Source of the DNA: Candidatus Methanogasteraceae archaeon UBA261
Lineage (GTDB): Archaea > Halobacteriota > Methanosarcinia > Methanosarcinales > Methanogasteraceae
Length of the DNA: 30,424 nucleotides
NCBI GenBank assembly: GCA_002506015.1
Contig: DAWR01000136.1
Coordinates: 1 to 30,424, forward strand
Reading direction: 5' to 3'
Of this stretch, positions 4,894 through 30,090 are shown piece after piece (position 1 is the first letter of the stretch; the number at the start of each line of letters is the position of its first letter). The notes under the pieces were generated by a model that did not search any database, had not been told where the DNA came from, and saw nothing but the letters and a program-made list of their open reading frames with translations. Both the position numbers and the translations under genes were made by a program.

Positions 4894-6796
4894 AGGCAGG
4901 AGTTGGTAAACTGAGCTCCGGGAGCGGGATGTTCACTTTCTTTGTTGAGAATTTCTTGATTCGCTCAATCAAACTATCTTTTCCGGCTCCGACCAGACTG
5001 AGTTCAAGCACCTCGCTGATCTTTGAGACCGGGATGATCTTCACCATCTCACGATAGCGGTCCTCGATTAAGACATCATCCTCGTTCGCCTTGGGTATGA
5101 TGACAGTCTTGATTCCAGCCTGTGCGGCAGCCTCGATCTTGTATGTGACGCCGCCCACGGGTAGCACGTCGCCCCTCACAGAGAGAGATCCGGTCATTGC
5201 GACTGACTGATCGATCGGGATTCCTTCGAACGCGGATATCACCGCCGTTGCTATGGAGATTGATGCGCTGTCACCTTCCACGCCCTCATACGTGCCTATG
5301 AACTGGACATGAATGTCCATATTCGTCGTACCGGTGCCTGTGACCTTCTTGATCAGTGCGGAGACGTTCTGCACGGCTTCCTTTGCGATGTCCTTCAGCA
5401 TACCTGTTGCGATCAGGTTTCCTGCGCTCTTGGATATCGCTGGCGTGACCTCTGCCATGATCGGCAGAACGATTCCCGAATCGCCGCCCATGATCGCAAG
5501 TCCGTTCACCCGTCCGACCTCCTCGCCCTTCTTCTGGTACATCTTGTAGTCCATGCGCCGCTCAAGATACTGGTCTGCGAGTTGCTGCTCAACCGACCTC
5601 GACATATGCTTTGCAGCAAGAACATGTGCCGATGTCACAACCGGCGCCAGCTCCGAACGGGCGATGTCGCCTGACACGCGCACAAGACCGCCGAGATCTC
5701 GCAGTTTCAGTGTGAGGTGGTCTTTTCTTCCGGCACGGCGTTTTGCTTCACGTAGTATTTCCATAAGAGCGCTCTTGTCGAAATGAGGAATCTTTCCGTC
5801 CTTCTCGACCTCCTGTGCAACAAATCGGACGATCTTTCTCCGGTTCTCTGGCGTATCTTCCATCGAATCACGCATATATATCTCGTATCCGTATCCCTTG
5901 ATCCTCGACCTGAGTGCAGGGTGCATGCCCTCTATTGAGTCCAGGTTCCCCGCTGCAACCATGATAAAGCCACACGGAACCGGCTTTGTCTTGACGAGAG
6001 CGCCTGAACTACGTTCTGACTGTCCTGTGATCGAATACTCCCTCTCCTGCAGTGCAGTGAGCAGGCTCTGCTGGGATTCGGGGCGCAGAATGTTGATCTC
6101 GTCGATGAAGAGCACGCCTTTGTGTGCTTTGTGGATGTCTCCTGCCTCCACACGATCATGGGACGGCGTCTCGAGTCCACCTGACTGGAAGGGATCGTGC
6201 CGCACATCGCCGAGCAATGCTCCTGCGTGTGCACCTGTCGCGTCCATGAACGGTGATGTGTCCTTGTTCGCGTTGTTCACGAGCAGCTTCGGTACGATCG
6301 CTTTTCCGCCCTGCACGAACTGCCTGCCGATCACCATGATTAAGAGAACAGCAAGAATCCCCCACAGCAGAGCCATTCCGCCGAGTGTTGCAGCATAGAG
6401 GAGGATGCAGAATCCGACTATCAGTAGAATTGTGTTTCTGACCTGTGCCTTTTGCTGAGCTTCAATTTTATGGGCGTTGACGATCTGTATTCCTTTCCCA
6501 GCCCGAACCTCTCGGATCAGCGGGTTATTTGCATCTTCCGGGTTGTGATAGACGAGTACGTCTTTTAATTCTTCCTTTGGAAGGAGTTCAGCCATCGCCT
6601 GGGCTAGCATCGATTTTCCGGTGCCAGGAGTTCCTATCAGCAATACGTGCCTCCGCTGCTGTGCCGCCTTCTTGATGATCTCGCTGGCATCTTCTTGCCC
6701 GATCACCTGATCAATCAAGAGCGGTGGAACTTCAAGATCCTTTGTCGATTCGATATCCGCTCCGCCGAGCAGATCACCGTTCGGTTCGTCGCCCAT
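4877..6796 (-). CDS. lonB: Archaeal membrane-anchored ATP-dependent protease LonB
   Basis: DQVIGQ, Walker A GTPGTGKS, two-helix hydrophobic insert, Walker B VLFIDE, catalytic EGDSAS Ser and downstream Lys (YKIEAA). Start at 6796 is likely; the track uses 6847. Confidence 0.95.
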
Positions 6797-20106: not shown

Positions 20107-20613
20107 ATGACTAGTACGGACGAGTTACAGGTACAATCATTACAAGATGAACTTGAGGACTGCAAGGCGAATAACAGAGCATTGACGATACTTGCTGGCG
20201 AAGTTTCGATGATACTCGACGAGATGGCAAAGACGGACGAGGCAAAGAGTATCTGTAGGATTATGGGAGAAGATGCGGGAAGACGTCTTGGCAAGAACAC
20301 GAAAGATCGCTTTGGCGCGATTGCCAAGGTGGAGGAAGCTCTGGACATTCTCCTATACCATACCGAATTGTTGCGCGGGTACCGTATCGAGATTGATCAT
20401 ATCGAAGATGGTACGATCTATATCAACGTACTCTCATGTTTTGTGCGAAACATTCTCAGGGATCGCAAACTCCTGACAGCATCCCCACTCTGTAGCATCA
20501 CGCGCGGATATCTCGAAGGAGCGTTGGAGGAGCTCACCGGAAAAAATGTGAGCGTAGAGATTGCGTACGGAGACGTGGACGGTGTGTGTCGGGAAAAGAT
20601 TATCATTAAGTGA
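20107..20613 (+). CDS. V4R/MetOD1-like small-ligand-binding domain protein, paralog 1
   Basis: MGEDAGRRLG helix, SCFVR, SPLCSITRGYLEGALEELTG, GVCRE. Three Cys at 111, 129 and 161. SD ggagg upstream. Confidence 0.75.
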   Translation: MTSTDELQVQSLQDELEDCKANNRALTILAGEVSMILDEMAKTDEAKSICRIMGEDAGRRLGKNTKDRFGAIAKVEEALDILLYHTELLRGYRIEIDHIEDGTIYINVLSCFVRNILRDRKLLTASPLCSITRGYLEGALEELTGKNVSVEIAYGDVDGVCREKIIIK

Positions 20614-20771
20614 ACTGGAGATTTTCCCACTGCATTGGATACCACTCTTGTAGCACATGACGTTCCAGTGGCATAAACGGTGCCATATTGATTTGTGGAC
20701 GCAAAGCAACGCTCATAGGCGTTGGTCTAACAGTATGTATCTAACACTGGAAACCCCTCGCTAAATAACAT

Positions 20772-20779
20772 TTATATGA
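20772..20779 (+). promoter_or_regulatory. Putative TATA box for paralog 2 / radical SAM unit
   Basis: tttatatg about 35-40 bp upstream of the ATG at 20813, followed by SD ggag. Confidence 0.5.
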
Positions 20780-20812
20780 AAGTAACCATACCAGTAGGTT
20801 GGAGATGTTACC

Positions 20813-21319
20813 ATGCCCAACACCAAACAGATGCAGATAGATTCACTGGAAGATGAACTAAAGGATTATAAAGCCCTTACCAAGGCATTAACGATACTCG
20901 TTGGTGAAGTTTCATGTATAATGAATGACATGGCAGAACCAGAAGAGGCTGCAAACTTCTTCGTGCATATGGGCGAAGCTTCGGGAAAGCGGCTCGGGAA
21001 AGCGACAAAAGAGCGTTTTGGCGAGATTGAAAACGTGGAAGAGGCTCTTGACACGTTCATTCATCACACAGACATGTGGTATGGATATAAGATGGAACTC
21101 GACCACATAGAGGGCAACGAGATACACATCAATATATTCAAGTGTTTCATACGTGACATTCTCAGAGATCGCAAACTCACGACCGAGTCCCCGCTTTGCA
21201 GCATCACGCGCGGGTATCTCAGAGGAGCGTTGAAGGAGCTCACCGGAAAAAATGTGGACGTAGAGGTTGTGTATTGTGACGTAAACGGTGTCTGTCGAGA
21301 GAAGATCATAGTCGAATAA
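20813..21319 (+). CDS. V4R/MetOD1-like protein, paralog 2
   Basis: Same length (168 aa) as paralog 1 and 102/168 identical by manual gap-free alignment. Has an extra Cys at 155. Confidence 0.78.
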   Translation: MPNTKQMQIDSLEDELKDYKALTKALTILVGEVSCIMNDMAEPEEAANFFVHMGEASGKRLGKATKERFGEIENVEEALDTFIHHTDMWYGYKMELDHIEGNEIHINIFKCFIRDILRDRKLTTESPLCSITRGYLRGALKELTGKNVDVEVVYCDVNGVCREKIIVE

Positions 21320-22521
21320 TGATGGATGCGAAGATCAAGGCGATTCTCATAGCAGAGGGCTCGGCGGAGATCGATCCGGAGATGTCTGGCAGCCTACCAG
21401 CGTCGGTGCTGGCATCGAAGTCGACTGCAGGACCTGGCGCGGGGGTTGCTTCCTTCTTCTTTGAGTCGAATGGGCATCGTGTTCGGCTGGATGCTGTGGA
21501 TGACCCGGAGGCACTGCTCAAGGTTCGTCGGCTGAGCCAGGGGATGGCAGAGGCAGATCGTAGCATGCGTATGGTTGACGCGTCACAACCTCAGCAAGAT
21601 GTGGAGTGGAAAGGAGATGCAAAAGCATATAGTCGTCTGTCACTGTCGGAACCGCCCGCAACCTCTGCCACCAGTGAAATGCAATCCCACATGGAATCAA
21701 TGAGCAAGGGTTCCTGTAGCGAAACCGACGAGGTTGCAATCTTTTACGATGGTAGAGAGCTTGTGCGCGGCAGAATCGAGCCCGCGCTGCTACACTGCCC
21801 AGGGCAGGCATACATCACCATGAGCGAATCCTGTGTCTTTGACTGTACATTCTGCCCGGTTCCACGGCTTGCTGGCAGGACCAAATCCATAGAAGAGATT
21901 GTGGAGATGGTTGATTGTGCGTACCGGACAGGAGAGTTGCACGCGATTGCACTCACGTCAGGAATCGAGCGTTCACCCGAAGAAGAAGTCGCGCGGGCTT
22001 GCACGGTTGTGAAATCGCTCACAACGTACAACGTCCCGATTGGGGTATCTGTGTACCCGACCAGTGACTCGTCCCTGCGCCTGAGAGCAGCTGGCGCTGT
22101 TGAGGTCAAGTACAACGTGGAGACCATGGATCGAAGAATCTTCAAGCGCGCGTGCGCTGACATGGATCTCGATTTTGTGCTTGCAGCACTTAGGGAGGCT
22201 GTTGCAATCTTCGGCAGAAACAGGGTCTTCTCAAACTTCATAATCGGTCTCGGGGAGTCAGACGAGACCGTGAAGAGTGGTGTTCGGGAGCTTGCCGGAC
22301 TGGGTGTGATCCCGATTCTTCGTGCGCTCAATCCCCACCCGCTCCGCCCTGACCTGTTGGATACCTGCCCGGATGCAAGACGTCCGGATGCTGATCGACT
22401 GCTCAGACTTGCACAATTCGAGCGCGAGGTTCTGGATGCATGCGGCTTGCGCGCTGACGTCGCGGAGACCATGTGCCTGCCGTGCGGAGGATGCGATCTT
22501 GTGCCGCACCGAGATGTGTGA
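21319..22521 (+). CDS. Radical SAM protein, biotin-synthase-related (COG2516-like), with internal insertion
   Basis: CVFDCTFC (CxxxCxxC), STAGPGAG, LLHCPGQAYIT, VKYNVETMD and C-terminal CLPCGGCD. TAATG overlap with the upstream gene. Confidence 0.88.
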   Translation: MMDAKIKAILIAEGSAEIDPEMSGSLPASVLASKSTAGPGAGVASFFFESNGHRVRLDAVDDPEALLKVRRLSQGMAEADRSMRMVDASQPQQDVEWKGDAKAYSRLSLSEPPATSATSEMQSHMESMSKGSCSETDEVAIFYDGRELVRGRIEPALLHCPGQAYITMSESCVFDCTFCPVPRLAGRTKSIEEIVEMVDCAYRTGELHAIALTSGIERSPEEEVARACTVVKSLTTYNVPIGVSVYPTSDSSLRLRAAGAVEVKYNVETMDRRIFKRACADMDLDFVLAALREAVAIFGRNRVFSNFIIGLGESDETVKSGVRELAGLGVIPILRALNPHPLRPDLLDTCPDARRPDADRLLRLAQFEREVLDACGLRADVAETMCLPCGGCDLVPHRDV

Positions 22522-22696
22522 GAGCAGGAGTTATCCGGCTGCCTCACGAAACAGCGATACCTTTGAGATGGGCAACTACCCTGAAATGGCTCCTGCATGC
22601 CAGCCTCCGCATAAATACGCTTGGGACAATTGGAGTGGTGATATGCTGGCACTCTCAATTCCTGGATATCCAAAGTCTAAAATCTGTCGAAGAGAC

Positions 22697-22722
22697 GTAC
22701 GTGTTTAGCTAACCAACATACG
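22697..22722 (+). repeat. Apparently empty shell-I element
   Basis: gtacgtgtttagctaaccaacatacg: left arm as at 15003 and 23771, directly followed by a degenerate right arm with no core. Confidence 0.6.
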
Positions 22723-22757
22723 AAGAGACAAGAAATGATCGTGGAGAATGTATCGAA

Positions 22758-23075
22758 ATGAACGACAACCCAATCGATTTCAAAAACATGGGCTGGGAGA
22801 GTCCCGCACCAGGAATTCGGTACAAAGTGTACGTCCGGGGCGATCAGCGGATACGGCTGGCGGAGTTTTCAGAGGATTTCAGTGAGCCAGACTGGTGCAC
22901 CAGAGGGCATGTTGGATATGTTCTGGAGGGGAGAATCGCAATCGACTTCAATGGTGAAATAATCGACTTCAGGTCCGGCGACGGGATTTTCATTCCGGAG
23001 GGTGAAGAGAGCAGGCATAAGGGCAAAGTCGCCAGAGGCGAAAAGGCGTTGATAATTCTATTTGAAGAGGCGTGA
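22758..23075 (+). CDS. Cupin-fold protein
   Basis: 105 aa with WCTRGHVGYVLEG, FRSGDGIFIPEG and RHKG cupin-like motifs. Confidence 0.8.
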   Translation: MNDNPIDFKNMGWESPAPGIRYKVYVRGDQRIRLAEFSEDFSEPDWCTRGHVGYVLEGRIAIDFNGEIIDFRSGDGIFIPEGEESRHKGKVARGEKALIILFEEA

Positions 23076-23903: not shown

Positions 23904-24215
23904 TCATCCCGGGCAGATCTCGCAGTGTTCGTCCTCCCTGATCTTCCTGCAGATCTTGCATATTCTCATCATCAGATAATCGGTCTCGCCTCTGGCGATA
24001 TCGGCTGCAAGATCGGCTATGGCATCCTTGACACCATCCTGCAATTCGATCTTGGATCCCCTTTTGTTGGATACATACTGTGACACCGCTGCCTGCGTGA
24101 TTCCAAGTATCTCTGATATCTCTTTCTGGGACATCGCCTTCACGAGTTCTTTTGCCAGTTCGGATCTGATGGCAGGGAGCACATACCATACCACGTTTTC
24201 GCAGGGGACTTTCAT
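23904..24215 (-). CDS. Xre/HTH transcriptional regulator (COG2522-like) with Cys-rich C-terminus
   Basis: PCENVVWYVLPAIRSELAKEL, HTH MSQKEISEILGITQAAVSQY, and tail CKIC...HCEIC. Confidence 0.88.
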   Translation of the reverse strand: MKVPCENVVWYVLPAIRSELAKELVKAMSQKEISEILGITQAAVSQYVSNKRGSKIELQDGVKDAIADLAADIARGETDYLMMRICKICRKIREDEHCEICPG

Positions 24216-24240: not shown

Positions 24241-24252
24241 TAACAATTGTTA
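24241..24252. promoter_or_regulatory. Perfect 12-bp palindrome TAACAATTGTTA, candidate operator
   Basis: Sits between a minus-strand TATA (tataaa, 24231-24236) for the HTH gene and a plus-strand TATA (tatataaaa, 24268-24276) for ycaO. Confidence 0.5.
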
Positions 24253-24314: not shown

Positions 24315-25550
24315 GTGAGACTAAAATCATGTATCAAAAAATATAGAAAGGACACACACAGAGCGGTCCCTCCGGAGGAGACGCTCTCCCGCATCGAGTC
24401 GAAGATGGTGGCGGCTGGCATAACAAGGGTTGCTGATATAACAGACCTTGACAGAATCGGCATACCGGTCTTCTCAAGCATCAGACCGACCGCAGATGAC
24501 GGCGCAATCTCCGTCTACAATGGGAAAGGTGCAACGCCGGCAGAAGCCAAGGTCTCGGCGATGATGGAGGGCATAGAGCGCTACTCGGCAGAGGTTCATG
24601 ACAGGGAACTGGTGAAGGGGCGGTTCTCGGAGTTGAGCAGTGACAGAAACGCTCTCAATCCTGGTGAACTGATCCTGCCGCACCCATCAGACCACGATCA
24701 GAGTATCCAATGGATCAACGGATACGATCTGGTGAACGACGAGGAGATACTCGTGCCTGCCGATGCGGTATTCCATCCACTCCCGCTCTCCGGGGACAAT
24801 GGCGCACTCTTCCGGACGAACACGAACGGTCTGGCATCAGGAAACGAGATCGAAGAGGCGATATTCCACGGGCTTTCAGAGGTGATCGAGAGGGATGCAT
24901 GGTCGCTCATCGAGGCGTCTCGAAATACCGGTCCGAACATCACAATCCCCGAGAACGGAATGATCAGAGATCTCCTGGATAGATTTGCGGATGCAGAAGT
25001 CTCGGTGCAGATCAGAGATATGACAAGCGACATTGGGATCCCAACGTTTGCTGCAGTCTCGGATGACACCCTGCTGAAAGACCCTGCGCTTCTCACAATC
25101 GGGATGGGGACTCATACGGACGCGCATGTTGCGATGTTAAGAGCGATAACAGAGGTTGCCCAGAGCAGGCTGACCCAGATACACGGCGCAAGAGAGGACA
25201 CAACAGTTGCAGAGTTCCGGAAGAAGATCGGCTATGAGCGGACAAAGAGGATCAACAGATACTGGTTTGACATATCTGATGAAACCAGAGAGAGCAACTT
25301 CGATTGCGGTACATCGTTTGAGAGCGATGATTTTCTGGACGACATAGAATACATGAATAGGAATCTTGGAGACGCCGGTCTGGAGCGGATGATCGTTGTG
25401 GACCTGACAAGGGACGAGATCAATGTTCCCGTTGTCAGAGTGATCGTTCCGGGGCTGGAGGTCTATGCGATGGATTCTGAGCGGATCGGTACGCGGTGTA
25501 AAGATGAAAGAAACAAGAATCGCCGTTTTCATAGGTCCAAGCGTGGATAA
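24315..25550 (+). CDS. ycaO: YcaO-family McrA glycine thioamidation enzyme
   Basis: ITRVADITDLDRIGIPVFS, VYNGKGAT, MEGIERYSAE, TNTNGLASGN, EVIERDA, EVAQSRLTQIHGAREDT and VVRVIVPGLE. GTG start after the strong SD gaggtga. Confidence 0.95.
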   Translation: MRLKSCIKKYRKDTHRAVPPEETLSRIESKMVAAGITRVADITDLDRIGIPVFSSIRPTADDGAISVYNGKGATPAEAKVSAMMEGIERYSAEVHDRELVKGRFSELSSDRNALNPGELILPHPSDHDQSIQWINGYDLVNDEEILVPADAVFHPLPLSGDNGALFRTNTNGLASGNEIEEAIFHGLSEVIERDAWSLIEASRNTGPNITIPENGMIRDLLDRFADAEVSVQIRDMTSDIGIPTFAAVSDDTLLKDPALLTIGMGTHTDAHVAMLRAITEVAQSRLTQIHGAREDTTVAEFRKKIGYERTKRINRYWFDISDETRESNFDCGTSFESDDFLDDIEYMNRNLGDAGLERMIVVDLTRDEINVPVVRVIVPGLEVYAMDSERIGTRCKDERNKNRRFHRSKRG

Positions 25551-26175
25551 GGAGACTGCAAAGGATATCCTTGATACGGAGTATGATATAGAGTACCTGC
25601 CGCCTGCAAAGCGAGGAGACGTTTCTAGAGCGGCTAACGATGGTGTAGAGATTGTATGTCTCATAGATGGAGTATTTTTTCAGGATTCTGCAGTAGCTCA
25701 CCGAGAGATCCTCTATGCCCTTAAGAAAGGGGTTAATGTGATCGGATCATCGAGTATGGGGGCACTCAGGGCATCCGAACTGGATCTGTATGGGATGGAG
25801 GGGGTTGGAAAGATATATGAGTGGTACAAAAGCGGAAAACTCGTATCAGACGATGAGGTTGCTCTCTTCTTTGACCCGGTGTATTTCAAGCCCCTCTCTG
25901 AACCACTGGTCAACATACGGCACAATCTCGAGATAGCAGAAGCAAAAGGGGTGATCGATGGGGATGCCTCCAAGAAACTTCTAAAGATCGCAAAATCCAT
26001 GTACTTCCCTGATAGAACATACCAGCGGATACTCGATGATGCGGAAGGCGAGATAGATTTTGAGGCGCTCAAGCGTTTCAGGAGGTTCATCGATCAGGAA
26101 AAGAGGGATTTGAAGATGGAGGACGCAATCGAGGCGCTGGAGCGGATAAATGAGATATGTGGAGTCATAAAATGA
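25504..26175 (+). CDS. tfuA: TfuA-related McrA thioamidation protein
   Basis: VFIGPS, PPAKRGD, IDGVFFQDSAVAHREIL, GSSSMGALRASEL, DDEVAL and PLSEPLVNIR. Overlaps the ycaO 3' end. Confidence 0.95.
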   Translation: MKETRIAVFIGPSVDKETAKDILDTEYDIEYLPPAKRGDVSRAANDGVEIVCLIDGVFFQDSAVAHREILYALKKGVNVIGSSSMGALRASELDLYGMEGVGKIYEWYKSGKLVSDDEVALFFDPVYFKPLSEPLVNIRHNLEIAEAKGVIDGDASKKLLKIAKSMYFPDRTYQRILDDAEGEIDFEALKRFRRFIDQEKRDLKMEDAIEALERINEICGVIK

Positions 26176-26453
26176 TTATTAAATTAAAAGCATTCGCAAT
26201 CTTCGGAGAGGTTCTCGGAAAGGAACGTAGCGTCGAACTGGGCGGAAAAGCCACTGTGTCGGATCTGCTCACCGAGCTGTGCACACCTCCTGGTGATGGC
26301 GCATACGATCTGATATTCAACGGATCCGGTATGATCAAGAAGCATGTGCATATACTGATAAACGGGAGGCATATCCTGTCCTTAAGCGGGATTAAAACCG
26401 AACTTGTGGATGGCGACGAAGTTGCGATATTCCCCCCCGTGGCAGGTGGTTAG
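26172..26453 (+). CDS. Ubiquitin-like sulfur carrier, ThiS/MoaD/SAMP family
   Basis: 93 aa beta-grasp pattern ending DGDEVAIFPPVAGG with a free C-terminal GG. ATGA overlap with tfuA. Confidence 0.93.
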   Translation: MIIKLKAFAIFGEVLGKERSVELGGKATVSDLLTELCTPPGDGAYDLIFNGSGMIKKHVHILINGRHILSLSGIKTELVDGDEVAIFPPVAGG

Positions 26454-26454
26454 A

Positions 26455-26847
26455 ATGATCGAGGTTACAGAAGACGATTTCACAATCGATGAGATTATTG
26501 GGAAAGCGAAGCATCCTGATTCCGGTGCGATCGTCACATTCCTTGGCATCGTGCGGGACGACGAGATCGTTGGTATGGAGATCGAGGCGTATACGGAACC
26601 TGCCTTGCAGGAACTCGGGCGGATACGAGACGAGGCACTCGAGCAGTTTGATCTGACCTCGCTTGACATCATCCACCGCACAGGAACGCTCTCTGTGAGC
26701 GATAACATACTGCTCATCGTGTGCGGCGCCCCGCACCGGAAGGATGCGTTCGCTGCATGTGAGTATGTGATGGACGAATTGAAGGAACGGGTACCTGTAT
26801 GGAAAAAGGAACTATCAGAGGACGGGGGGCGATGGGTGAATGGATGA
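26455..26847 (+). CDS. moaE: Molybdopterin synthase catalytic subunit
   Basis: GAIVTFLGIVRD, IIHRTG, APHRKDAF and ELKERVPVWKKE. Start MIEVTE 1 bp after the moaD-like stop. Confidence 0.93.
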   Translation: MIEVTEDDFTIDEIIGKAKHPDSGAIVTFLGIVRDDEIVGMEIEAYTEPALQELGRIRDEALEQFDLTSLDIIHRTGTLSVSDNILLIVCGAPHRKDAFAACEYVMDELKERVPVWKKELSEDGGRWVNG

Positions 26848-27151
26848 ACTTGTTGTAATCCTCTGCGCAGCACCGCTCGATCAATCAGAAGAGATAGCGA
26901 AAGCTCTTATCGAGGAGAGACTTGCAACATGTGTGAACATTACTGGAGTTAAATCATATTTCAGGTGGGAGGGGGGATTTTGTGCTGAAAAAGAGGATTT
27001 GTTGATCATTAAGACAAGAAAAGATCGAACGAAGGAAATCATTTCGAAGATAGCCGAATTGCACAGCTACGAGGTTCCTGAGATACTTGCCCTCCCTATA
27101 ATCAAAGGATATGACAGGTATCTGGAATGGGTTGGAGGGGAGGTGCGGTGA
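26840..27151 (+). CDS. cutA: Divalent-cation tolerance protein CutA
   Basis: EERLATCVNI, SYFRWEG, IIKT, HSYEVPEIL and YLEWV. Confidence 0.93.
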   Translation: MDELVVILCAAPLDQSEEIAKALIEERLATCVNITGVKSYFRWEGGFCAEKEDLLIIKTRKDRTKEIISKIAELHSYEVPEILALPIIKGYDRYLEWVGGEVR

Positions 27152-27152
27152 A

Positions 27153-27836
27153 ATGAGCATCCGCAAATCTCCGGCAATTCGCGTGAACAATAATTGCGCG
27201 ACAGAGACCATTGATGACGTCTGCATCGAGGAATCTTTTCAGTTATACTTGAACAACAAGTTCATCGGTGAGTTGATCGCAAGTCCGTCCCAACTCGAGG
27301 AACTGGGAGCAGGTCATGTCATCTGCGAAGGGCTTGCATCCGGTGTTTCTGGTGTGCAGGTATCAGGGGACGAGATACGCGTGTATGTAGAGACGCCAGA
27401 TGAGAAGTGCACGACCGGATATCCCGTTACAATCGAAAAAGAGCATATTTTTGAGGTTATGGATTCAATCATCTCTGAAATCTGGGAAAGAACCGGAGGA
27501 GCGCACTGTTCTGTTCTTTTCTCTGATGGAAGGATGATTGCAAGGAGCGAGGACATAGGACGGCATAATACGGTTGACAAGGTTGTCGGATATGCCATTC
27601 TTAAGAATATCGATCTATCCACTTGCGTTCTCGGATGCAGCGGCAGGCAACCGACAGCGATGGTATCAAAAGTCGCCAATGCCAAAATCCCGATCGTGAT
27701 ATCGAGATCTGCCTCGACCGATAAGGGAATTCGTACGGCGGATCTGGCAGGAGTGACGCTGATATGCTTTACAAGGGAGAATAGGTTCACGGTGTATACC
27801 CATCCCGGTCGAATCATACTGCATCAAGGAGTGTGA
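27153..27836 (+). CDS. fdhD: FdhD-family sulfurtransferase / formate dehydrogenase accessory protein (short form)
   Basis: ASPSQLEELGAG, RTGGAH, EDIGRHNTVDKVVG, SGRQPTAMVSK, SASTDKGI and LICFTR. Confidence 0.9.
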   Translation: MSIRKSPAIRVNNNCATETIDDVCIEESFQLYLNNKFIGELIASPSQLEELGAGHVICEGLASGVSGVQVSGDEIRVYVETPDEKCTTGYPVTIEKEHIFEVMDSIISEIWERTGGAHCSVLFSDGRMIARSEDIGRHNTVDKVVGYAILKNIDLSTCVLGCSGRQPTAMVSKVANAKIPIVISRSASTDKGIRTADLAGVTLICFTRENRFTVYTHPGRIILHQGV

Positions 27837-27841
27837 GGACT

Positions 27842-28558
27842 ATGCTGACAGGAGAGAGATACGACAGGCAGATACCGCTATTCGGAGATGACGGCCAGGA
27901 GCGGATCAGGGATGCAAGCGTCTTTATCGCGGGAGTCGGCGGACTTGGTTCTCCATTGGCTATCTATCTTGCGGTAGCAGGTATCGGCAGTATCGCAATC
28001 GCGGACTTCGATACGGTTGACGTGAGCAATCTGAACCGACAGATCCTGCACTGGAATGACGACGTTGCGCGGATGAAGGTAGATTCCGCCATAGAAAAAT
28101 TGATAAAAATCAATCCTGATGTTGAAATAGACGCCATATCCACGAAAATCGATGAAGACAACGTCTTCAAGCTTGTTGGCGGTTCTGATCTGATCGTTGA
28201 TGCGATGGATAACTTTAGTGCAAGATACCTGTTGAATAAGGCGGCGATAGCAAGGAATACCCCGCTCGTCCATGGGGCAGTTCACGGATTGGTTGGACAG
28301 GTAACAACGGTAATTCCGGGAGAGACTCCATGTCTGCGGTGCATAGTTCCAGACGCCCCTCCGGAGGGCATTTTCCCGATCATCGGGGCAACATGCGGCG
28401 TTGTGGCAAGCATTCAGGCGAACGAGGTTCTGAAGTATATCACAGGCACTGGAACCCTCGCATCGAACAGACTCCTGTTCTGGGATGGATCGAATGCGAC
28501 TATGAGCGAGATACCGATAGAACGGGATCCCGGATGCGTCGATTGCGGAGGCTTTTAA
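27842..28558 (+). CDS. ThiF/MoeB/HesA-family E1-like adenylyltransferase
   Basis: RYDRQI, GVGGLG, DFDTVDVSNLNRQ, DAMDN, and Zn pairs CLRC and CVDC. No rhodanese domain. Confidence 0.93.
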   Translation: MLTGERYDRQIPLFGDDGQERIRDASVFIAGVGGLGSPLAIYLAVAGIGSIAIADFDTVDVSNLNRQILHWNDDVARMKVDSAIEKLIKINPDVEIDAISTKIDEDNVFKLVGGSDLIVDAMDNFSARYLLNKAAIARNTPLVHGAVHGLVGQVTTVIPGETPCLRCIVPDAPPEGIFPIIGATCGVVASIQANEVLKYITGTGTLASNRLLFWDGSNATMSEIPIERDPGCVDCGGF

Positions 28559-28614: not shown

Positions 28615-30090
28615 CTACTCAAAATCAGATGTGAAGCAGTCGTCAGGATCGCTGAAGACGACATATTCCGCATTGAAGTCTTCAGGATCGTACCCTTCAC
28701 CGATCCAGTCCAGCAACTCTTCATTGTCCTCATTCTCCGGGTCTTTCCGTGCATCCAGTATGTCTGCATAGCCGCCTACACCGCCACAATCCTCGGGCGG
28801 GCATGCTCGCTTTCCTTTAAGGCATATTGGGTATGAAACCACCTCCTCTCTCGGAAGTATCTTCTCCAGAAGTATCTTGTGCCCCCAGCAATCTCCAAAA
28901 TCGTACAGATAGTTGGCAGACCGGCTTTCCATGGAAAAATGCTTGGCTATCTTTTGTTTGTGTTCCGGAAGAATATCTCTACCGAATTCGTCGTCCGAAT
29001 GCCCCATAGTCAGCTTTGAGGCGCTCTTTGGGTCGGGCACCTCAAACTCGTGAAGATGGCAGCCAGACCACTCCATTGCATCCTGGATTGCAACATGCAG
29101 GTCCCGGAACGTGTAGTTCCCAGGAACCTGTATTCTCCGCCAGATCGGCGGTCTGATGCCTTTCAACGTGATCTTGAACTGATACACCTGCTCGAATTCG
29201 TCTCTGTGATCCTTGCCATCGTACATATCCCAGTCTTCGTCCCAGTCATCATCGTCAACGAAATACTCGCCATACTCCTCGTCAAAGGTGTCCTCCCAGC
29301 CAAGCTCCCCTCCCGAGAGCGCATTCATGATGGCTCCGGTAGGAGCTATGATATCGAGCACTTCCAGAGGTAGATACCCCTCATCAGCCCTCCCCATAAT
29401 TATCCTACCGATTGCGATCTGGCATATCTTGTAATCGGCATATTCTTCTGAAAATACGTCTCTCGCATCTCTAATGTGTGGTATCGCTCGCTTATCCTGC
29501 TGTCGCACCATACAGTCAAGGAGATGGAACATATCCACGTTTACGTACTTCCAGTCGTATGTTGTCGGGTCAAAAGGTCCGTCCGGCAGTTCTGACATGT
29601 ACTCGTCCAGCAGCCTGTTCAGGAAATCAATCGACCTGTCGCACCGTATCTCACCGATAGTGCTCAATGTATCGGCTGTTATGCGATCCACTCCACTTCC
29701 TTCCCTTATCGGATGTGCAATCCTGTATTCCACCTTTTTTATCACTTCCGGAATGCACATCTCTCCTATTTCCTTAAGGGCGTCTTTGGCATATTCGCCC
29801 AGTTCGGATTCTTCCAGTGCATCGACGAGTGGGGCGATCGCCCTTTCATCTCCGATTGTTCCCAGCGCGCAAGCCGCAAAATGACTGCTCCAGCTGTCAG
29901 GATCGTTTAGCACATCTATCAACTTGGAAACAGCGGGTTCTCCAATTAATACCAGCTTATCCACGACTTTTCTCAGCTCAGCTTCTCCCTCCCTCGAGTA
30001 ACCGGCTTCATCATACTTCTTCAGATCCAAGGTCAGCTTGTTGATCATTTCTTCGATCTCGTTCTCTGTTCTTTTGCCTTTTTTGGGCAT
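28615..30090 (-). CDS. HEAT/PBS-lyase-repeat protein fused to a plasmid pRiA4b ORF-3-like domain
   Basis: N-terminal repeats (IGEPAVSKLIDVL, AACALGTIGDERAIAPLVDAL) and an acidic linker. C-terminus has YQFKITLKGIRPPIWRRIQVP, LHVAIQDAM, HLHEF, YLYDFGD and ACPPEDCGG. Confidence 0.85.
   Translation of the reverse strand: MPKKGKRTENEIEEMINKLTLDLKKYDEAGYSREGEAELRKVVDKLVLIGEPAVSKLIDVLNDPDSWSSHFAACALGTIGDERAIAPLVDALEESELGEYAKDALKEIGEMCIPEVIKKVEYRIAHPIREGSGVDRITADTLSTIGEIRCDRSIDFLNRLLDEYMSELPDGPFDPTTYDWKYVNVDMFHLLDCMVRQQDKRAIPHIRDARDVFSEEYADYKICQIAIGRIIMGRADEGYLPLEVLDIIAPTGAIMNALSGGELGWEDTFDEEYGEYFVDDDDWDEDWDMYDGKDHRDEFEQVYQFKITLKGIRPPIWRRIQVPGNYTFRDLHVAIQDAMEWSGCHLHEFEVPDPKSASKLTMGHSDDEFGRDILPEHKQKIAKHFSMESRSANYLYDFGDCWGHKILLEKILPREEVVSYPICLKGKRACPPEDCGGVGGYADILDARKDPENEDNEELLDWIGEGYDPEDFNAEYVVFSDPDDCFTSDFE

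Follow-up and report, generated by a model that had tools for sequence, protein, structure and literature searches.

A seven-gene operon of an ANME-2c archaeon in which a single ubiquitin-like carrier may supply both methyl-coenzyme M reductase thioamidation and molybdopterin synthesis

Gene content and distribution of the operon

The DNA analysed (the window) was a stretch of 30,424 nucleotides (nt) from Candidatus Methanogasteraceae archaeon UBA261 (GenBank assembly GCA_002506015.1, contig DAWR01000136.1, designated C208 here), a metagenome-assembled genome (MAG) of 2.37 Mb in 224 contigs that is 86% complete. The host oxidises methane anaerobically and belongs to the ANME-2c (anaerobic methanotrophic archaea, group 2c) family within the Methanosarcinales, with Methanogaster as a relative. 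Seven open reading frames (ORFs) on the plus strand, between 24.3 and 28.6 kb of the window, formed an operon in the order ycaO-tfuA-carrier-moaE-cutA-fdhD-thiF. Genes were named from Pfam and NCBIfam profile scores relative to the cut-offs of the models, and start codons were picked by model coverage together with a Shine-Dalgarno-like sequence upstream.

The first gene, ycaO (24315..25550), starts at the GTG at 24315 downstream of a GAGGTG Shine-Dalgarno sequence and encodes a YcaO protein of the type that thioamidates the glycine of McrA, a subunit of methyl-coenzyme M reductase (MCR), as indicated by matches to TIGR03266 (505.1 bits, cut-off 365) and PF02624 (337 bits). The tfuA gene (25504..26175; NF033432, 289 bits, cut-off 235), with its ATG at 25504, overlaps ycaO by 47 nt and shares an ATGA overlap with the following gene for a ubiquitin-like sulfur carrier (26172..26453, ATG at 26172; PF02597, 52.5 bits, cut-off 22.5), a protein of 93 residues with the tail FPPVAGG. 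One nt separates the carrier stop codon from the ATG at 26455 of moaE (26455..26847), which encodes the large (catalytic) subunit of molybdopterin synthase (PF02391, 114.2 bits, model positions 1-114 of 114) and is overlapped by 8 nt by cutA of the CutA1 family (26840..27151, ATG at 26840; PF03091, 106.6 bits). Both MoaE (86 versus 175) and CutA (96.6 versus 120) scored below the respective NCBIfam equivalog cut-offs. After a further 1-nt gap there followed the gene for a short FdhD-family protein of 227 residues (27153..27836, ATG at 27153; TIGR00129, 153.5 bits, cut-off 140.9) and, after 5 nt, the gene for a ThiF/MoeB-type E1 adenylyltransferase of 238 residues (27842..28558, ATG at 27842; PF00899, 241 bits). 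The translation of this last gene shows a GxGGxG nucleotide-binding motif and two CxxC pairs (zinc motifs); no rhodanese domain was found in it by Pfam/NCBIfam scanning, and the protein is thus not of the MoeZ/MOCS3 type. Beyond the end of the operon at 28558 lie a run rich in T and then a gene convergent with thiF. The analysis bore out the seven identities, the endpoint and the tight packing (i.e., genes overlapping or no more than 5 bp apart) proposed in a first-pass annotation of this DNA, and also its remark that the unit holds neither a rhodanese nor a cysteine desulfurase, the E1 having no rhodanese domain and none of the seven genes encoding a desulfurase.

Linkage of ycaO-tfuA to genes of this kind has been described before, as the first-pass annotation had also noted for thiS and thiF. 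Thus, thiF, sufS, moaD, moaE and moeB were reported near ycaO-tfuA in several methanogens by Nayak et al. (2017, PMC5589413), who showed that YcaO and TfuA thioamidate McrA; fdhD does not occur in that paper. The general linkage of ycaO-tfuA with sulfur and molybdopterin genes is therefore already known and occurs commonly among Methanotrichaceae and Methanomicrobiales, and the present operon is a lineage-specific variant of it. The two systems share the same YcaO and TfuA families and overlapping genes, whereas in the window all of the genes are coupled in translation within one operon that has only one carrier and in which cutA and an fdhD-family gene are embedded.

The extent of the linkage was surveyed in three sets of loci, i.e., DNA surrounding fdhD in 20 members of the family, DNA surrounding ycaO in 80 named genomes and DNA surrounding ycaO in 40 genomes across the phylum, all scored with hidden Markov models (HMMs) made from the proteins of the window. 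In the ycaO survey, genes were counted as neighbours if they lay within 5 kb of ycaO and on the same strand. Identical gene order and equally tight junctions recurred in about 20 related genomes, which argues that the order is not due to chance. In Methanogaster (genus g124) the order was ycaO-tfuA-carrier-moaE-(cutA)-fdhD-thiF, with cutA present in about half of the loci, while another ANME-2c genus (g125) contained two units, ycaO-tfuA-carrier and carrier-moaE-fdhD-thiF. The nearest relative of the source genome (L030, i.e., genome G403 of the same genus, with 95% YcaO identity) carried ycaO-tfuA-carrier-moaE-thiF between the same flanking genes as in the window, cutA and fdhD being absent. 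Every other ANME-2c cluster seen contained fdhD within the operon, and cutA was present in 5 of the 13 ANME-2c ycaO loci of the 80-genome set. To judge from these layouts, in-operon fdhD is typical of the family but open to loss, cutA is optional, and the linkage of the two genes to the operon is not peculiar to the source genome. In one ANME-2 MAG (L035, 8066-8959), a 248-residue ORF was inserted between tfuA and the carrier gene, with the first residues of the carrier duplicated on both sides, a configuration that resembles the insertion of a mobile element.

Among 67 loci outside ANME-2c (Methanotrichaceae, Methanomicrobiales and others), a carrier gene was a neighbour of ycaO in 42, moaE in 35 and thiF in 27; the corresponding counts in the 40-genome phylum sample were 4 for the carrier, 4 for moaE and 8 for thiF. 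The HMM-scored ycaO loci of Methanosarcinaceae had no thiF, carrier or moaE neighbours. Outside ANME-2c, fdhD was noted near ycaO at few loci and each time on the opposite strand, and cutA was never found within 5 kb of ycaO in the loci surveyed. In-operon fdhD was thus confined to the ANME-2c family among these loci, in keeping with the earlier description of cutA-fdhD as the less familiar part of the operon.

Clusters of two other lineages are among the closest known systems. The cluster of Methanocrinis/Methanothrix harundinacea (ycaO-tfuA-carrier-thiF-DUF1894-carrier-moaE) consists of the same families and has one E1 for both branches but differs from the ANME-2c operon in the presence of two specialised carriers, which are 33% identical and end in FPAVVGG and LPPFSGG, and in the absence of fdhD and cutA. 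In clusters of this type (L053:11391-11669, L072 and L124), the DUF1894 gene has thiF on one side and the second carrier, i.e., the one linked to moaE, on the other. The Methanoculleus-type cluster (thiF-carrier-moaE-ycaO-tfuA) resembles that of ANME-2c in having a single in-cluster carrier next to moaE, but the gene order is different, the carrier is of another lineage (37% identity), fdhD and cutA are absent, and complete genomes of this type contain a second carrier elsewhere.

The sulfur carrier

One PF02597 gene and one real ThiF-family gene were detected in the source genome, in each case the operon copy, and when every ORF of the genome was searched locally with HMMs and without a filter, no further gene for a carrier or a ThiF protein emerged. 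Similarly, each of five Methanogaster MAGs (73-94% complete) contained exactly one PF02597 gene, located in the operon; five complete genomes from other lineages contained two to three each. In a carrier phylogeny calculated with IQ-TREE (support given as SH-aLRT/UFBoot, i.e., the approximate likelihood ratio test and the ultrafast bootstrap), all ANME-2c carriers formed one clade (93/96), with the TfuA-linked carriers from Methanotrichaceae as its sister group (97/98). The ANME-2c carrier did not group in this tree with moaE-linked carriers, which represent the MoaD orthologue lineage. In agreement with the tree, the carrier of the window was 50% identical to the TfuA-linked carrier of Methanocrinis as opposed to 30% identical to the moaE-linked carrier of the same organism and 37% identical to the moaE-linked carrier of Methanoculleus. 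Scores exceeded the cut-offs of two archaeal carrier models, moaD_arch (62.2 versus 49.5) and SAMP1 (65 versus 60), and fell short of those of the bacterial MoaD equivalogs TIGR01682 (24.5 versus 66.15) and NF008347 (24.7 versus 94). The tree and the identities thus indicate that a carrier of the TfuA type precedes moaE in ANME-2c, the ordinary MoaD lineage being missing, and a separate MoaD appears to have been replaced by this TfuA-lineage carrier.

The split operon of g125 was informative in the same respect. Each half retains its own carrier, and the two copies, which are 73% identical, group together in the tree (48/86), a duplication that would be expected if both halves need this carrier. 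A second YcaO paralogue in the genus of the source genome was solitary, with neither tfuA nor a carrier alongside in three congener genomes. This paralogue, present in the source genome as a partial copy at a contig end (C60:187-1472, L159) and also at L156, L157 and L158, exceeded the TIGR03266 cut-off both in the three congeners and in the partial copy and was flanked by genes for very large surface-type proteins. The idea that a second tfuA-carrier set might lie hidden next to the partial copy on C60 was rejected in view of the solitary state of the paralogue in these congeners.

These comparative results (i.e., the gene counts, the carrier tree, the duplication in g125 and the solitary YcaO paralogue) favour, with moderate confidence, the proposal of the first-pass annotation that a single carrier is shared, such that one carrier and one E1 would serve both TfuA/YcaO and MoaE. 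Related arrangements are known. A thiocarboxylated ThiS homologue and the hydrolase TfuA deliver sulfide to YcaO, according to the summary of Liu et al. (2021) given in PMC13063428, and as in the system outlined there, a GG-ending carrier directly follows tfuA in ANME-2c and an E1 is encoded in the same unit; the ANME-2c carrier differs in that it also directly precedes moaE and in that a separate MoaD was not detectable. Likewise, the archaeal SAMP/UbaA system (Makarova and Koonin, 2010, PMC2948915) relies on one E1 and multi-purpose beta-grasp carriers for several sulfur pathways. According to the abstract of that paper, most archaea possess carriers of the ThiS type as well as of the MoaD type, whereas only one carrier was found in the ANME-2c genome.

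Several points weigh against a shared carrier. The ANME-2c genomes are all fragmented MAGs from which a second small carrier gene may have been lost in assembly, PF02597 and the custom HMM could overlook a very divergent carrier, and the clade support for the duplication in g125 is moderate (48/86) for proteins of about 91 residues. Furthermore, YcaO accepts free sulfide in vitro and ANME archaea inhabit sulfidic sediment, where TfuA and the carrier may be dispensable for thioamidation. The carrier might accordingly be a plain MoaD that works for MoaE only, with YcaO taking free sulfide, TfuA employed otherwise and the genes joined for co-regulation by sulfur status. Such an arrangement would suit the sulfidic habitat, the MoaD-like FPPVAGG tail, the moaD_arch score and the fact that a nearby carrier is missing from ycaO-tfuA in Methanosarcinaceae and in numerous other cases (35 of the 40 loci of the phylum sample). 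It is nevertheless unlikely, given that the carrier clusters with TfuA-linked rather than moaE-linked carriers, that the split operon of g125 leaves ycaO-tfuA with its own carrier joined to tfuA and that tfuA is often followed directly by a carrier in other lineages (a carrier being a neighbour at 42 of the 67 loci mentioned above). The converse arrangement, in which the carrier serves TfuA/YcaO only and MoaE uses a MoaD that was unassembled or undetected, would agree with the TfuA-linked ancestry of the carrier, with the incompleteness of the MAGs and with the two distinct carriers in one cluster of Methanocrinis. This we judge to be highly improbable, since six ANME-2c genomes (73-94% complete) contained no second PF02597 gene, moaE begins 1 nt past the carrier stop codon and the gene that precedes moaE in g125 is a second copy of this type of carrier.

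The FdhD-like protein, CutA and the proposed relay

The C-terminal domain of the FdhD-like protein, which is the conserved nucleotide/cofactor-binding domain of the family, matched PDB entries 2PW9 (E 2.9e-16) and 4PDE (E 6.5e-11), the latter being the FdhD sulfurtransferase/chaperone of Escherichia coli. Although the two proteins belong to the same Pfam/TIGRFAM family and share this domain, the ANME-2c protein (227 as opposed to 277 residues) is without the Cys121/Cys124 loop, which in E. coli FdhD is thought to take persulfide from IscS and hand it to the cofactor (PMC13653126). An equivalent loop with the sequence SGCGG is present in canonical FdhD proteins of archaea encoded at the loci retrieved. 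By alignment, about 23 residues that include the Cys loop are deleted from all operon-encoded ANME-2c FdhD-like proteins, and the single Cys near the deletion is unconserved, being replaced by Tyr in several orthologues. The subfamily has invariant motifs of its own, GG-x-HCS and GC[ST]GRQP, and its longer members often have a loop without cysteine.

Linkage of fdhD to genes for formylmethanofuran dehydrogenase (Fwd/Fmd) or formate dehydrogenase (Fdh) was absent from the window. In a sister genus, g123, fwdA-fwdC-fwdD-fwdB was followed after 4 nt by fdhD (L012, G404:C209, 1-4069); the encoded FdhD belongs to another subfamily that is also without the Cys loop and that carries a THSS motif. FwdB genes (TIGR03129) were detected throughout the family and in the source genome. 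Formate dehydrogenase was considered as a client of the FdhD-like protein and set aside, PF00384 having no match in the genome at E<=1e-5. Given this negative result and the FwdB genes, the client of the FdhD-like protein is likely to be the formylmethanofuran dehydrogenase Fwd/Fmd, as opposed to the formate dehydrogenase served by E. coli FdhD. The FwdB gene at C128:3512-4655 of the source genome contains an in-frame TGA at approximately model position 110, a layout shared with genome G424; this codon probably specifies a selenocysteine metal ligand.

The first-pass annotation had suggested that FdhD is the persulfide donor, i.e., that it provides the sulfur with which the adenylated carrier is charged in both branches. 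This suggestion draws on the absence of a rhodanese domain from the E1 and of a desulfurase from the unit, on the position of fdhD immediately before thiF throughout ANME-2c, on the conserved cysteines that the subfamily has of its own and on a subfamily relative that follows sufC-sufBD in a metagenome contig. The last of these came from a metagenome scan of distant fdhD neighbourhoods, which comprised five loci; the contig in question (L160:3939-7607) carries sufC-sufBD-fdhD-nadA with a gene for a TPR-fused YcaO 2 kb upstream. The proposal did not hold up well and is now quite unlikely. The relay loop is deleted, the conserved C-terminal domain is one for nucleotide or cofactor binding, and genes for a NifS/IscS-like desulfurase and for rhodaneses are located elsewhere in the genome. 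Moreover, a carrier and an E1 are present and fdhD is absent in the clusters of Methanoculleus, Methanocrinis and L030, and a search of the whole L030 genome (87% complete) detected no gene for FdhD. Most likely, the FdhD-like protein acts downstream on the tungsten/molybdenum (W/Mo) cofactor, a role that agrees with its cofactor-binding domain and with the fwd-fdhD operon of g123, and is not the source of the carrier's sulfur. Against this assignment, the role of the FdhD-like protein is deduced from family membership and one neighbourhood of a different FdhD subfamily, and two metagenomic relatives of the subfamily adjoin suf genes or cutA as opposed to Fdh or Fwd genes.

Recurrent pairing of moaE, fdhD and cutA was noted outside the operon. 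A second moaE lies directly before a second short fdhD in the source genome (C206:5788-6597, L003), with neither a carrier gene nor thiF beside them; this fdhD occupies two reading frames, with an apparent frameshift near 6283, and is truncated where the contig stops. The orthologous moaE-fdhD pair of the congener G401 (L010:6216-7284) was intact, and in an unrelated metagenome contig cutA was followed by fdhD after 2 nt (L163:4222-5252). This pairing suggests that MoaE, the FdhD-like protein and CutA may cooperate in some manner. The operon copy is the sole cutA of the source genome, and cutA was not found anywhere in five genomes without an operon cutA. CutA is an optional and dispensable accessory that tends to travel with FdhD.

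With the carrier shared between TfuA/YcaO and MoaE, the operon would link two pathways of sulfur insertion through one carrier and one E1. On the basis of family knowledge, the ThiF/MoeB-type E1 would adenylate the C-terminal Gly-Gly of the carrier, and the adenylate would be converted to a thiocarboxylate with sulfur from sulfide or from persulfide supplied by the NifS-like or rhodanese proteins encoded elsewhere. Comparative genomics points to two uses of the charged carrier, i.e., hydrolysis by TfuA, which would release sulfide to YcaO for thioamidation of the McrA glycine, and consumption of two charged carriers by MoaE to form the dithiolene of molybdopterin or tungstopterin. The loop-less FdhD-like protein would then most likely bind the W/Mo-bis-pterin guanine dinucleotide cofactor destined for formylmethanofuran dehydrogenase, sulfurate it or act as its chaperone. 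Plausibly, the operon in this way coordinates both ends of the one-carbon pathway, namely MCR and W/Mo formylmethanofuran dehydrogenase. A more far-reaching version, in which the TfuA-type carrier would be the only sulfur carrier of the cell and would feed not only the thioglycine of MCR and the pterin dithiolene but also, through a loop-less FdhD in which new active-site cysteines have taken the place of the IscS-persulfide loop, the terminal sulfido ligand of W/Mo Fwd, is a long shot; a single regulated relay would then supply all of the special sulfurs in the enzymes that open and close reverse methanogenesis.

In the anaerobic oxidation of methane, MCR is the enzyme of entry and formylmethanofuran dehydrogenase that of exit. 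To our knowledge, ANME-2c cannot be grown in pure culture, and the logic of this operon is thus one of few handles on the maturation of MCR and Fwd. If the carrier serves both TfuA and MoaE, the operon would constitute a natural minimal sulfur relay for heterologous expression of ANME-type MCR and a clear case in which one ubiquitin-like carrier has taken over from another. A concrete question is also raised by the loop-less subfamily of FdhD, namely how the sulfido ligand is formed in sulfidic anaerobes. The gain is incremental since the basic linkage was already published; what is new, as read from the genomes compared, is the in-operon fdhD specific to ANME-2c, the single detected carrier, the apparent descent of this carrier from the TfuA lineage and the duplication of the carrier in the split genus.

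Candidate regulation and flanking genes

A gene for a helix-turn-helix (HTH) protein of 103 residues lies on the minus strand at 23904..24215, divergent from ycaO. The protein gave only weak matches to HTH families in Pfam and ends in a C-terminal CxxC...HCxxC motif. The gene was conserved (77-93% identity) at all 20 of the 20 ANME-2c ycaO loci, including those of the split genus g125, each time divergent and about 100 bp upstream of ycaO. Between the two genes lies a palindrome, TAACAATTGTTA (24241..24252), that is a candidate operator; all ANME-2c ycaO loci, those of the split genus included, had it in invariant form some 70-130 bp ahead of ycaO, and it was lacking in front of the separate moaD-moaE-fdhD-thiF operons. 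To judge from this conservation, the divergent HTH protein probably regulates the operon by way of the palindrome, the two representing a candidate regulator and its operator. The 12-mer has a single exact copy in the 2.37-Mb genome, and a regulon with multiple palindrome sites was rejected on this account.

Other genes near the operon were noted on both sides. The convergent gene downstream (28615-30090, minus strand) encodes HEAT/PBS-lyase repeats and a PRiA4_ORF3 domain and is kept in L030 only. Further upstream, at 20107-23075, lie two V4R-like genes, a radical S-adenosylmethionine gene and a small cupin gene, the last two of which are syntenic in L030, with identities of 88% and 85%, respectively.

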